Virus genome (UHGV): UHGV-0186980
Source of the DNA: a virus
DNA: 44,857 nt
Direction: 5' to 3' (one strand)
Shown here: in pieces, positions 36,683 through 39,414 of the stretch
How the letters are laid out: the number at the start of each line of letters is the position of its first letter
Position numbering within the stretch: the stretch's first letter is position 1
Program-made: the position numbers and the translations under genes
Notes under the pieces: generated by a model
The model's database searches: none
Told to the model about the DNA's origin: nothing
What the model saw: the letters and a program-made list of their open reading frames with translations, nothing else

Positions 36683-36938
36683 GGTGACCTCTCTTTTTCT
36701 GTGGTGTAACTTCTTGTTTACTTTCCGTATGCTTCAAATACCGATGCGGATATAAAATCTGGAGTTCATCTATCTGGCCTGAAAAAAAATTGACCAGTTT
36801 CTCCGCAATGTCAGTTGACGCAACCTGTTGCCCTCGCTCGATTCGGCTCAAGTTTCCAGGATCAATATCTACTGCTGCAGCAACATGGGACAAAGTCATA
36901 CCTTGCGACTTACGCAAGTATCTTAACGGTGATTGCAT
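36675..36938 (-). CDS. cro: Cro-like HTH repressor
   Basis: XRE-type HTH (LSHVAAAVDIDPGNLSRIERGQQ); AGGAGG RBS; divergent from cI. Confidence 0.7.
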   Translation of the reverse strand: MQSPLRYLRKSQGMTLSHVAAAVDIDPGNLSRIERGQQVASTDIAEKLVNFFSGQIDELQILYPHRYLKHTESKQEVTPQKKRGHRG

Positions 36939-37036
36939 AAAACCTCCTTTAAATTGCGCATTACGCATATTAAAGGGTACTTACGCCTTGCGCAAGTTGC
37001 TTTGCATATAACGCAAAAATGACTTGTAATTAACTT
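36939..37036. promoter_or_regulatory. OR region: divergent PR/PRM promoters with TTGCG-N5-CGCAA operator palindromes; cI mRNA likely leaderless
   Basis: Sites at 36954-36968 and 37002-37016; PRM -35 TTGCAT (37002-37007), -10 TGTAAT (37025-37030) ends 6 nt before cI ATG. Confidence 0.6.
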
Positions 37037-37732
37037 ATGAACATCGGAAAGCGAATCAGAGAACTACGCCTTGCAAAGGGCTTAAAAATAAACGACCTGG
37101 CTGATGCTTTGGGCATTGATGGCGCCAATATTTCTCGCATGGAAACAGGTAAACAGAAATCATTTACCGAACAATCCCTTAATCTTTATGCAAAGGCATT
37201 AGGCGTAGAAGTTGCTGAGCTCTTTACACCTCCCCAAAATGAAATTACTGTATATAATAACAGTATAAAACATCCAGTTCATGGAGAGGGTAGCTCGGTG
37301 TTTAGAGTGGAAATGCTTGATGTCAGTGCGAGCGCTGGTGGTGGATTTATTCAGGGCAGTGATGTTATTGATGTCATAAGGTCTATTGAATACAACAACG
37401 ACCAAGCCATGACTTTATTCGGTGGCAGAACACCAGACTCAGTGAAGGTCATTAACGTTCGGGGCGACAGCATGGCTGACACTATTCAGCCTGGAGATTT
37501 GATTTTCGTCGATGTTTCAGTCAATAGCTTTGATGGCGATGGCATCTACGTCTTTGGTTTCGATGGCAAAATATATGTTAAGCGCCTGCAAATGATACCA
37601 GATAAAATGCTCGTGATTTCTGATAATCCAAAATACAGAGAATGGGAAATCGATCGGGCTAATGAATACCGCTTTTGCGTTTATGGCAAAGTAATGATCA
37701 GCCAGTCACAAGCCTTCAAGCGCCACGGCTAA
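37037..37732 (+). CDS. cI: CI repressor (HTH + S24 LexA-like autopeptidase domain)
   Basis: N-terminal HTH; C-terminal GDSM Ser and VKR Lys motifs. Confidence 0.85.
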   Translation: MNIGKRIRELRLAKGLKINDLADALGIDGANISRMETGKQKSFTEQSLNLYAKALGVEVAELFTPPQNEITVYNNSIKHPVHGEGSSVFRVEMLDVSASAGGGFIQGSDVIDVIRSIEYNNDQAMTLFGGRTPDSVKVINVRGDSMADTIQPGDLIFVDVSVNSFDGDGIYVFGFDGKIYVKRLQMIPDKMLVISDNPKYREWEIDRANEYRFCVYGKVMISQSQAFKRHG

Positions 37733-37750
37733 CCAGTTCCATTCATTTTT

Positions 37751-37775
37751 GCCGCCTTTATGGCGGCTTTTTTAC
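37751..37775 (+). terminator. Intrinsic terminator after cI (GCCGCC-loop-GGCGGC + TTTTTT)
   Basis: 6-bp GC stem and T-run 19 nt after cI stop. Confidence 0.65.
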
Positions 37776-37785
37776 GCCCTCAAAA

Positions 37786-37822
37786 CTGCGAATTACGCAA
37801 TTTTTAGTTGCGTAATTCGCAA
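37786..37822. promoter_or_regulatory. OL: two operator palindromes TGCG-AATTA-CGCA and TTGCG-TAATT-CGCAA matching OR sites
   Basis: Mutually inverse 14-15-nt palindromes 7 nt apart, same consensus as OR. Confidence 0.6.
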
Positions 37823-37940
37823 CTTCATATTATCGTTGGTTGCATCGATAGCGAACAGGCAGGACGCCCACGAAGTAGCCGCCCGGGGCATATGAAGGCC
37901 GGGATGATTCGCTAAGCAACCAGACAGCAGAGGCTTCAGG

Positions 37941-38153
37941 ATGAATTCAGCACAACGCCGTAAGGCATACCGCAAGCTACCAAAAGCTGGAGGAATTGTA
38001 GTTCTACACGGTGTCCCTCGTTTAGTCCTAGGGTTATGCACATTTAACAGCTTTACGGGCGAAGAACGTAGCAAACCATCAGTAAACCGTATCAGAGTAC
38101 AAATGTCAGGCGGCTCAACTGCGGCCCCCCTGGTGCGTAATTTGAAGTTTTGA
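37941..38153 (+). CDS. Possible N-like antiterminator (70 aa, arginine-rich N-terminus)
   Basis: MNSAQRRKAYRKLPK resembles arginine-rich motifs of lambdoid N proteins; first ORF after OL. Confidence 0.3.
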   Translation: MNSAQRRKAYRKLPKAGGIVVLHGVPRLVLGLCTFNSFTGEERSKPSVNRIRVQMSGGSTAAPLVRNLKF

Positions 38154-38162
38154 TTAAAAACA

Positions 38163-38324
38163 GGTGTCTTCGGGAGGGGTTGCGGAGCTGGATTGACCAC
38201 CAGCAACAGAAACTCACCCGACATACAGCAGCCGTTTAACCCACGGCGTCGGGGGTCCAGTAAACCTGGATTAATACTGTAGGGGTTGTGCCGGTTGGTC
38301 GCCGGCGCCCCGCCCGAAGACACC
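38163..38324 (+). other. Structured element closed by a perfect 12-bp inverted repeat (GGTGTCTTCGGG ... CCCGAAGACACC); candidate cis-RNA/ncRNA
   Basis: Lies in GC-rich ORF-poor segment 38154-38880; internal hairpins. Confidence 0.35.
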
Positions 38325-39042
38325 TGAGTTAACACAACATGAAAGCGCATTCCATCTTCATCCGTCGTGGGGACTGGTTTGTAACTGAAGGAGTGCGCTT
38401 CCAGTTGTGAACGGCAACATTCACACCGTTGTATGGCACATGCAACGTCAGCGGCCTGAGAGTTCCCTTTATCCATCAACTCTCAGAACACCGGAATGTG
38501 CAAGCCAGGTGTTTCAGGCACGACGTGCGCCCCACCAGCGCGGCGAAAAGGTGTGACGCCCGGGAAGAGTCCGGGACACAACAGGTAAGAGCATTCCCGC
38601 CACACGAGGCTGAAACCCAAGCGCCATGTGGATGCGCCGAAAAGCTACGACGGGGCGTTGGTAGAAGATCGGAGTGCTCTTTCCGTTGTGGTAATTGCGG
38701 CTATGCGCACGTGACGAGCCAAACCCGTTCAATGAATGCGTTTCCGGGAAGTGTACGTCGCCGGTTACTGGCTAAACCCGGCAGGTGGAGGCACCACCGC
38801 CACAACCTAGTTAACTGTGCTGTGTGTGGTCTTGGCGGTTATCCAGTTTTCCACTATCCAAAGGAGGAAGAGGATAACGTTGTGATGGATAACCGCCCTT
38901 TTTACACAATACAAAAGAGCATCACCGGGCGACGGGCTCATTACCCAATCCACCCGGGCGGCATCCAAACCGCAGGTACTCTTCTGTGTTGTGTACGGAG
39001 AAATTCCCGGCGGTGGCAGCCGCCTTTCGAGAGGGTAAAACC

Positions 39043-39414
39043 ATGAGTAATGATCGCATGACAGTAGTGCCCGATTTCCTGGGTGAACTGGACGCCGGCG
39101 TGTTCATGAACAAGATTGCGGCGGCTCTTAATACCACCGCGCTCGGCGTTCTGAACAACGGCAACAAAGGCAAGGTTGTCCTCACCTTTGATTTTGAGCG
39201 TATGGGCAACTCTGTTGAAGAGAAGCGCGTCAAGATTAAGCACAAGCTGAACTACAGCACCCCAACTCCCCGCGGCAAAGCGTCGGAAGAGGACACCACC
39301 GAAACACCAATGTGGGTTAACAAAGGCGGCAAGCTCACTATCCTGCAGGAGGATCAGGGGCAACTCTTCGGTATCACCGGCACGGTGGACGGAAAGCTTA
39401 AAGCGGCTCAGTGA
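39043..39414 (+). CDS. YfdP-like hypothetical protein
   Basis: 123 aa from internal ATG; ATGA-coupled to an upstream 54-codon basic ORF (38883-39046). Confidence 0.5.
   Translation: MSNDRMTVVPDFLGELDAGVFMNKIAAALNTTALGVLNNGNKGKVVLTFDFERMGNSVEEKRVKIKHKLNYSTPTPRGKASEEDTTETPMWVNKGGKLTILQEDQGQLFGITGTVDGKLKAAQ

Follow-up and report, generated by a model that had tools for sequence, protein, structure and literature searches.

The DNA considered here is the virus genome UHGV-0186980, one strand of 44,857 nucleotides (nt), which is referred to below as the window. Its subject is a segment of 889 nt located between a small open reading frame (ORF) of 70 amino acids (aa) and a yfdP-like gene. Judged from sequence comparison, this segment is non-coding and is a mosaic of independently assorting plus-strand RNA modules, named in order A, H1, C, H2, E, T and H3 (Table 1). 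One of these modules, the C motif, is on the same evidence a discrete pseudoknotted RNA of 158 nt which occurs in three unrelated phage genome contexts. It is rated as a new RNA family, because it belongs to no family of Rfam and the features that define the nut and put antitermination elements were not found; in kind it is closest to the structured phage RNAs of the GOLLD/ROOL type. The real interest of the C motif is that it is widespread, well supported and present in phage P1, where it can be tested at once.

Structure and occurrence of the C motif

The helices of the C motif are designated P1, P2, P4 and P5. Helix P2 consists of a CGG/CCG stem and a variable inner stem, the loop of P4 reads YYCACCA and the loop of P5 reads GRAAGAG, and a CACC:GGUG pairing forms a pseudoknot. 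The copy in the window contains all of these helices. It matches the covariance model R1 over the full model length with 141 bits (E = 2e-45) and is the sole match in the 44.9 kb. Exactly one full-length C motif per locus was found with the covariance model in 95 of the 95 loci tested. About 50 of the 158 positions are invariant; the junctions are conserved and the peripheral stems, inner P2 and P3, are variable. The 3' end of the motif abuts the conserved ACAAC of hairpin H2.

Covariation was assessed in 88 distinct C sequences for 32 pairs, which belong to P1, the outer and inner parts of P2, P4, P5 and two candidate pseudoknots. Standard pairs occupy 97.1% of the cells, and in 14 pairs both partners have changed (208 cells). 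Covariation scores 0.261, compared with 0.109 +/- 0.005 for shuffles (0/500) and 0.02-0.06 when the partners are slid. In the pseudoknot formed by CACC of the P4 loop and a downstream GGUG, a double change from C-G to A-U is present in four sequences, which come from Kosakonia, two Citrobacter species and an Stx2c phage. This pseudoknot is supported by the aligned sequences, as are, by their covariation, the helices P1, P2 (outer and inner), P4 and P5. In the second candidate, GCACAU of the P1 loop with AUGUGC, both sides are invariant, two single uncompensated changes excepted, and the search patterns fix some of the residues there. A long-range helix proposed by RNAalifold, UGUGCAAGCC with GGUGUGACA, was rejected: it conflicts with the supported CACC:GGUG pseudoknot, and the search pattern fixed those residues.

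The C motif was gathered by two pattern scans that fix different residues. The first scan gave more than 120 viral contigs with the motif among the matches listed. The second, made on species-representative genomes, gave 30 stretches, of which the covariance model confirmed 20 and rejected 10 from unrelated phyla; those confirmed are 19 contigs from 16 Enterobacterales species and one doubtful 'Bacillota' contig. The motif is found in phages P1, P7 and D6, and the covariance model detected no copy in ST64B, Flotzy or HK022. Part of the query is matched by 1,474 of 5,426 complete E. coli genomes, and the best 20 of the 1,474 all lie on 38331-38690, in unannotated DNA. No family of Rfam 15 matches the C motif in the window or in 14 other loci, where both at gathering scores and at E <= 10 nothing was found over A, C or H. 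A description of the motif was not found in the literature on ST64B small RNAs (sRNAs), P1 ban transcripts, Pas sRNAs, anti-sRNAs or phage tRNA clusters.

Near-typical C motifs in enterobacterial-looking contexts are also present in the Stenotrophomonas phage BUCT708 (L009) and in a 1.7-kb contig of a metagenome-assembled genome labelled 'Bacillota' (L159). The host or taxon labels of both are doubtful, and contamination or mis-assignment may explain them.

Genomic contexts of the C motif

Among 153 loci, about 67 are P22/Uetakevirus-like, about 48 lie downstream of a cI-type repressor and 21 are P1-like. In the P22/Uetakevirus-like loci the array is located in a gap near the portal/terminase genes and ends at a strong plus-strand terminator before the next gene. 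In the E. coli prophage L001 the entire 5' untranslated region (UTR) of rdgC consists of C and an H hairpin, and in the E. coli prophages examined the gap from cI to the first early gene is unannotated. In the P1-like loci C is located in the C1-controlled ban operon, with trnI on one side and ban on the other. In phage P1 itself the operon also contains trnA, trnT and a 'dicF-like region', and the motif (L202, NC_005856, 71009-71294) takes up an unannotated trnI-ban gap of 286 nt, at a distance of about 2.3 kb from the promoter and after the tci genes and a tRNA. The P1-like copies are found without either of the flanking H hairpins.

A tRNA gene on the same strand lies at most 300 nt from C in 62 of the 153 loci (41%). 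A tRNA(CAT) is located upstream of C in 27 loci, and a tRNA-Arg(TCT) downstream of it in 35. The relatives' version of the array contains tRNA genes; no tRNA or tmRNA was found in the window.

Two further observations concern these neighbourhoods. In P1-like phages (RCS47, L134, 2004-2900) plp and upl are annotated opposite in strand to the H/E-like array that follows trnT, and these ORFs may be spurious. In an Stx2c phage (L135) matches to the C4 antisense RNA and isrK lie at 1288-1476 on the minus strand, about 2 kb upstream of its C motif; several RNA genes cluster near the immunity region there.

The H hairpins

Three H hairpins are present in the window and 50 distinct copies were collected near C motifs elsewhere. 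The 5' arm reads (A)CACAAC-A-GGUAAGAGCAUU and the 3' arm AGUGCUCUUUCC-GUUGUG, and between them is a variable interior of 20-95 nt. H1 and H2 conform fully to this definition and H3 is a degenerate member. The stem has 19 stacked pairs, one bulged A and one conserved mismatch; compensatory changes occur in 10 of the 19 pairs, with a score of 0.258 against 0.136 for shuffles. The H2 sequence is 93% identical in prophage L001, where it stands directly before the ribosome-binding region of rdgC. The double-stranded stem extends for about two helical turns, as expected of an RNase III site, and cleavage is what we infer from it. The H arms are all alike, so that a 3' arm is also able to pair with the 5' arm of the H that follows. 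Such pairing could enclose C or E in a long stem, by analogy with the processing stems of ribosomal RNA (rRNA).

The H hairpins are in close contact with tRNAs. In L010 the 3' arm of an H enters tRNA-Arg with an overlap of 3 nt (ARAGORN and Rfam coordinates), and in RCS47 an H hairpin begins at the base after the CCA of tRNA-Thr. The T-loop-like sequence GKTCRAHYC is found in 7 of the 50 interiors, and its reverse complement in none of the 50. Some interiors (L011 2612-2660, L134 2026-2072) contain a near-perfect tRNA T-arm (GGGTTCGAATCCC) beside the 3' arm. Such sequences suggest that the T-arm-bearing interiors derive from, or mimic, tRNA acceptor/T minihelices.

Folding and modular arrangement of the segment

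The segment folds with -365 kcal/mol, compared with -312 +/- 8 kcal/mol for dinucleotide shuffles (z = -6.3; 0 of 20 shuffles equal it), and its minus strand has z = -5.4. The RNA is assigned to the plus strand, because dominant G-U pairs would become A-C mismatches on the opposite strand. In the C motif columns 10/20 are U-G in 86 of 88 sequences and columns 7/23 are G-U in 41, and in H columns 19/40 are U-G in 27 of 44. The tRNAs and the terminator of L011 share the strand of the array.

The module boundaries were defined by BLAST and nhmmer against related loci. The co-occurrence table contains many different combinations of modules, and the full combination of the window is unique among about 200 loci. 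ST64B has only the leader, A and the tail, and the majority of loci carry only C or H-C. In Flotzy one hairpin stands in place of everything from the 5' arm of H1 to the 3' arm of H2 in the window, which is consistent with recombination inside the repeated H arms.

The original prediction, made from the letters of the window alone, described a hairpin-dense segment in which a perfect 12-bp inverted repeat closes a domain of 162 nt and more stem-loops follow. The density of hairpins is borne out by the folding energy and by the presence of about seven modules. The inverted repeat does close the domain and extends to 14 bp (38161-38174 and 38313-38326), but the domain is only one of the modules and not the most widespread. 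A prophage non-coding RNA or an unrecognised element had been among the identities offered, and a non-coding structured RNA matched by no library agrees with this. The Rfam scan proposed at that time gave 0 matches at gathering scores with Rfam 15 in the window; at E <= 10 there were only chance-level matches beyond a weak resemblance to DicF. The proposed comparison across homologues revealed conserved structure with compensatory changes. Conserved ORFs with synonymous-site variation in homologous prophages had been named as evidence to the contrary and were not seen. The prediction passes its own test, since the homologues keep the structure with compensatory changes and without a synonymous-site pattern.

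Modules A, E, T and H3

Domain A is common to ST64B-type prophages, where it directly follows the PL leader, and it matches 36 viral contigs. Its consensus has 44 pairs, three of which are compensated (A-U/G-C 11:6, C-G/U-A 17:2, A-U/G-C 10:8), and most columns are invariant.

Module E was found by nhmmer in 19 loci and has 78% identity to SopranoGao. Similar units come after H hairpins in RCS47. One of them (L134, 2778-2898) lies directly after an H hairpin, ends at a terminator and matches the sRNA family STnc100 with 38 bits (E = 3e-7), below the gathering score of 47. This suggests, at the level of sequence similarity, a common ancestry of the STnc100-type sRNAs and module E. The copy of E in the window has no Rfam match even at E <= 10.

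Hairpin T is terminator-like. Its equivalent in L010 and L011 reads GGCGGTGG..CCACCGCC CTTTTTAC and is followed by a strong terminator, and the counterpart of T in P22-like loci is a canonical terminator hairpin. T itself is not listed by the terminator scan because its loop has 40 nt. The hairpin and its flanks (38834-38897) weakly resemble the 3' half of DicF (UUGGCGGU...CCGCCCUUUUU), with 14 bits against a gathering score of 48, and this is a lead only.

H3 is a long hairpin in the minimum-free-energy structure. The tail of the segment, 38903-39042, is present in 51 loci according to nhmmer.

Coding potential and layout of the locus

The absence of a convincing coding region, as claimed originally, is confirmed. 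The six ORFs inside the segment have no matches to Pfam or PHROGs, whereas both flanking genes do. In comparison with the Klebsiella phage Kp4866-6, which is 89% identical here, the segment has 78 substitutions, distributed as 31/20/26 over the codon positions of the plus-strand frame of 205 aa. Nine indel events separate the two sequences, and six of them are not multiples of three. The corresponding substitutions of the coding controls are 0/0/6 for yfdP and 3/1/14 for the 70-aa ORF. The segment is classified as non-coding because codon periodicity and protein-family matches are absent, indels break the frame and the terminal ORF is unconserved.

The terminal ORF had been described as 54 codons from 38883 with a good ribosome-binding site and ATGA coupling to the next gene. 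It exists, has a GAGG-type Shine-Dalgarno sequence and overlaps yfdP as described, but its ATG is at 38885, it has 53 codons and its frame is not conserved. The frame is open in the four closest relatives only. It is interrupted within homologous DNA in L168 (where YfdP is 100% identical), Flotzy and all loci of the ST64B type. The start codon lies within the 12-bp stem of hairpin T, and no protein family matches the product. On these comparisons the ORF is probably not a gene. The description of the segment as GC-rich is valid relative to the cI/cro region (0.54-0.58 against 0.40-0.44); it is relative only, because the downstream genes reach 0.51-0.54, so that the segment is barely above them.

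Table 1. Features of the window in the region of the RNA array.
Feature	Position	Strand	Description
cro-like gene	36675-36968	minus	lambdoid immunity region of the window
cI-type repressor gene	37037-37732	plus	Peptidase_S24 and HTH match
Intrinsic terminator of the cI-type repressor gene	37751-37775	plus	terminator scan: 6-bp GC stem, then TTTTTT
OL-like operator palindrome, putative early-left promoter	37787-37821		14-bp perfect inverted repeat, 7-nt spacer
Conserved leader of the early-left transcript	37844-37913	plus	97% identity to Kp4866-6; 76-78% to ST64B and Flotzy
70-aa gene	37941-38153	plus	Arg-rich N-terminus; outside the RNA array; 14 of 18 substitutions at codon position 3
Segment of 889 nt, predicted non-coding	38154-39042	plus	between the 70-aa ORF and the yfdP-like gene
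Domain A	38160-38327	plus	about 165 nt; 14-bp closing stem; 81% identical to ST64B
Hairpin H1	38331-38410	plus	arms 38332-38353 and 38390-38409; member of the repeat family
C motif	38423-38580	plus	158-nt RNA; P1, P2 outer/inner, P4, P5, pseudoknot
Hairpin H2	38576-38690	plus	arms 38576-38597 and 38671-38690; holds GCTCTTT 38676-38682
Module E	38691-38810	plus	head GUAAUUGCGG..GCGC; tail hairpin GGUGG-AGGCA-CCACC, then CCACAAC
Hairpin T, terminator-like	38834-38905	plus	12-bp perfect stem 38834-38845 / 38886-38897, then CCUUUUUAC
53-codon ORF, probably not a gene	38885-39046	plus	overlaps T, H3 and the start of yfdP, whose ATG its TGA overlaps
Hairpin H3, degenerate H-type	38903-38995	plus	26-nt arms, 77% complementary
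yfdP-like gene	starts 39043	plus	phrog_204; yfdQ- and yfdR-like genes further downstream

The layout in Table 1 suggests a PL-like transcription running rightwards from a putative promoter through the leader, the 70-aa ORF and the 889-nt segment into the yfdP-, yfdQ- and yfdR-like genes. The part 37751-37913 is kept in ST64B and Flotzy (BLAST), and the leader is present in 49 loci (nhmmer). The original assignment of the gene at 39043 as YfdP-like agrees with its match to phrog_204. The 70-aa ORF had been called N-like. Compared with L190/L181 it has 18 substitutions, 3/1/14 by codon position, and two amino-acid changes, a pattern that marks it as a genuine gene under purifying selection. The N-like label remains unproven, as no Pfam or PHROG family matches the gene; its homologues form only 12 unnamed clusters (Serratia, Citrobacter). 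The ORF is located on an insertion of 246 bp relative to ST64B, in which the leader joins domain A directly, and it is missing from most relatives that carry the RNA modules (nhmmer co-occurrence table). Its 3' end, 38134-38153, is a 20-nt inverted copy (90%) of 37780-37799 in the left part of the operator region and includes the half-site TGCGTAATT. This copy could be an extra repressor half-site or an insertion scar.

Comparison with antitermination elements and other candidates

The original prediction also noted a boxA-like GCTCTTT and considered nut- or put-like antitermination RNA. The GCTCTTT is present, at 38676-38682, but it is part of the 3' arm of H2, where its variable base covaries with the partner, AAG[A/C]GC with GC[U/G]CUU (columns 15/44: A-U 30, C-G 7, G-C 4). 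The boxA reading is rejected because the pairing and not the boxA sequence is conserved. A lambda-type nut has a single-stranded boxA (CGCUCUUUA-like) conserved as sequence and a cognate N-family protein. Here the element is paired and no N-family protein was detected, the 70-aa ORF being without a family match and mostly missing at module-bearing loci, so the nut-like reading is not supported.

The put-like reading fares no better. The HK022 locus that holds putL (L007), in which putL was also read by eye, gave no BLAST alignment at E <= 1e-3 with 37740-39100 of the window. Membership in HK022 put would require similarity to putL/putR and paired copies at PL and PR. No second copy of the modules was found in the window, for example downstream of PR, where BLAST-short gives chance words of 11-16 nt, and C is missing from ST64B, Flotzy and HK022. 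An antitermination reading of the nut/put type is not specifically supported.

Other identities were considered as well. The long stem, the T-arm-like interiors and a GGUCCG in C prompted a comparison with YrlA/Y RNA, whose defining features are a 5' motif GNCGAAN0-1G and D and T arms that resemble those of a tRNA (PMC4201824; Rfam RF02553). Reading of the H and C sequences did not reveal this motif, and Rfam gave no match to them; the only YrlA match, with 25.6 bits, lies on a tRNA-Asn/tRNA-Thr pair. An analogy with integron attC sites (RYYYAAC/GTTRRRY against CACAAC/GTTGTG), judged by eye, was rejected: the modules fall short of the size of gene cassettes, and either side has one mismatch. 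Mimicry of CRISPR repeats, as in an RNA anti-CRISPR, was also considered, and by eye no resemblance to CRISPR repeat sequences was seen.

Proposed function and alternative explanations

The arrangement of the modules allows us to propose that the segment is a co-transcribed array of stable RNAs on an early, repressor-controlled transcript, which is cut apart at the H stems. We consider the chances for and against this proposal to be about equal. The segment would be the non-coding 5' part of a PL-type early-left transcript controlled by the repressor, and after induction or infection the array would be transcribed at high level. Host RNases would then cut at or next to the long H stems, RNase III acting on the stems and RNase P/E where tRNAs adjoin. 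Cutting would release stable small RNAs, namely C and also E, whose end would be the T terminator, and would leave the yfdP mRNA with a hairpin-protected 5' end. The array would thus be a phage 'stable-RNA island' of the type that carries tRNAs elsewhere, with C as its conserved functional unit. We consider that C more probably acts in translation, in tRNA biology or against host defence than in regulation of the downstream gene, in view of the company of tRNA-Arg UCU and tRNA-Ile2 CAU and of the early expression.

Several points weigh against this proposal. The evidence for RNase cleavage at H consists entirely of the stem length and of the H hairpins that abut tRNAs. In the lambdoid context C is always in a 5' UTR, which suits a cis-acting element equally well. 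For the stand-alone arrays no sigma-70 promoter was found by the promoter tool, and a TTGACA noticed by eye is oddly spaced. T-loop-like interiors are confined to 14% of the H hairpins. The members of H were selected by pattern and folding, so their paired fraction is inflated, and the search patterns for C fix some loop and junction residues. Finally, the two uncompensated changes in the P1 loop argue mildly against the P1-loop/J pseudoknot.

A bolder version may be put forward, although we regard it as rather doubtful. C would be a new functional class of phage RNA with a direct biochemical activity, as a polymerase-bound antiterminator, a self-processing ribozyme or a decoy/sponge for a host tRNA-directed or defence factor. 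The modules H, E and A would form a recombining 'RNA cassette' system, in which the hairpins are both processing signals and shuffling joints.

It is unlikely that the segment is a cis-acting processive antitermination RNA, put-like but of a new class, in which nascent C or A binds RNA polymerase so that it passes T and later terminators. The promoter-proximal position in repressor-controlled early operons, the lack of a detected N-family protein and the terminator-like hairpins after the array, in the window and in L010/L011, would suit such an element, and a macromolecular partner is suggested by the many residues that are invariant in loops and junctions. However, there is the lack of similarity to the HK022 putL locus, and each phage has one copy, none of them on the PR side. 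ST64B and Flotzy, close relatives with the same downstream genes, lack C. Whatever lies downstream of C is often separated from it by a tRNA, the P1 copy is far from its promoter behind the tci genes and a tRNA, and L001 has no terminator between C/H and rdgC.

We consider it improbable that C is a riboswitch-like or protein-binding leader which acts in cis on the first early-left gene, on its translation or stability. Aptamers typically combine conserved junctions with peripheral stems that vary, as C does, and C is in the 5' UTR of about 48 lambdoid loci and immediately before ban in the P1-like phages. However, the downstream genes are unrelated (rdgC, yfdP, ban and small hypothetical genes). 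Between C and any ORF there are a hairpin and a tRNA in 35 loci and one or two terminators in P22-like loci. No expression platform overlaps the ribosome-binding site, and in L001 hairpin H is located between that site and C.

A self-cleaving or otherwise catalytic C, which would punctuate the polycistronic RNA array, is quite improbable. Its compact pseudoknotted fold with so many invariant positions, its placement between units that need separation (tRNA, H, E) and its 3' end at the ACAAC of H2 are compatible with such a role. It matches no known ribozyme family, however, the P1-like copies have no flanking H hairpins, and the reading is drawn from analogy.

A role at the DNA level, in which the repeated H arms are recombination linkers or protein-binding palindromes and the remainder is filler, is very improbable. 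The H arms do occur at module junctions, as the comparison of Flotzy with the window illustrates, and the modules reassort freely. However, the strand-specific G-U pairs and the compensatory changes indicate selection on RNA, and conservation of C, A and E reaches far beyond the arms; recombination at H more plausibly results from the repeats than represents their purpose. Almost no credence can be given to the segment encoding one or more small proteins, such as the 53-codon ORF coupled to yfdP, since the Shine-Dalgarno sequence, the ATGA overlap and the open frame in four relatives stand against a frame broken elsewhere, a buried start codon, the lack of codon-position bias and family matches, and a peptide similarity that in distant loci tracks the conserved H3 nucleotides.

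The proposed array of stable RNAs bears on several questions. Temperate enterobacterial phages are well studied, yet their annotations show this segment as empty or give it doubtful ORFs. A covariation-supported pseudoknotted RNA that accompanies early promoters and phage tRNAs points to an unstudied RNA function at the onset of the lytic cycle. With it, the puzzle that GOLLD and ROOL pose as structured RNAs close to phage tRNA islands would have a counterpart in enterobacteria, and the hairpin-bounded modules offer a concrete mechanism for the mosaicism of non-coding phage DNA. If C is a new functional RNA class, it is one carried by the model phages P1, P7 and D6 and by roughly one quarter of complete E. 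coli genomes. Phage P1 and inducible lysogens allow the motif to be tested directly.

Comparison with known systems

It is important to compare the array with systems that share some of its features. The nascent put RNA of HK022 binds the zinc-binding domain of the RNA polymerase beta' subunit and suppresses termination in cis. The array resembles putL as a structured RNA just downstream of PL in a lambdoid phage with no evident N protein; the two phages also have similar cI repressors, and the record of ST64B describes its repressor Sb38 as 'similar to HK022 cI'. However, put has about 70 nt and two stems and forms a PL/PR pair (PMC9378689), while the array has no sequence similarity to it, is present in a single copy, is missing from close relatives and is associated with tRNAs.

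Module E is similar to the STnc100 (RF02076)/PasD prophage sRNAs in having a closing helix of the GUUGUGG...CCACAAC type, a GUGAAU head and a GGAGGCACC-loop hairpin, although the copy in the window reaches no Rfam score. The STnc100 RNAs are located in late or moron regions and their function is unknown (PMC12370729; bioRxiv 10.64898/2026.05.13.724894).

The H hairpins may be compared with processing signals. RNase III stems are found at the sites of the T7 early mRNA, at the lambda N-leader site and in rRNA operons, and mitochondrial transcripts are cut by 'tRNA punctuation'. The array likewise has stems of about 20 bp between the units of a polycistronic transcript, and units bounded exactly by tRNA ends. 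The H stems differ in being unusually conserved in sequence and in their variable, sometimes T-arm-like interiors, and their cleavage is presumed.

The DicF sRNA is encoded in the dicB operon of prophage Qin, which is a repressor-controlled early operon. It is said, after Faubladier et al. in 1990, to be released from a polycistronic transcript by RNase III/E. The likeness is seen in P1, where a dicF-like region, tRNAs and the C motif are contained in one C1-controlled operon. However, the score of hairpin T is far below the DicF gathering score, and the C motif is unrelated to DicF.

GOLLD (RF01998) and ROOL (RF03087) are large structured RNAs of phages and prophages, 'often near tRNA islands', and their function is unknown (PMC12286853). 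The C motif is, like them, a structured non-coding RNA of temperate phages, with a structure derived from covariation, which is repeatedly found beside or among phage tRNA genes. It differs in having no sequence or structure match in Rfam, in its length of 158 nt against about 580 to more than 800 nt, in its Enterobacterales hosts as opposed to Lactobacillales, rumen and marine taxa, and in being one module of a reshuffled array. The closest system in kind is therefore the structured phage RNA of the GOLLD/ROOL type, and the closest in mechanism is DicF.

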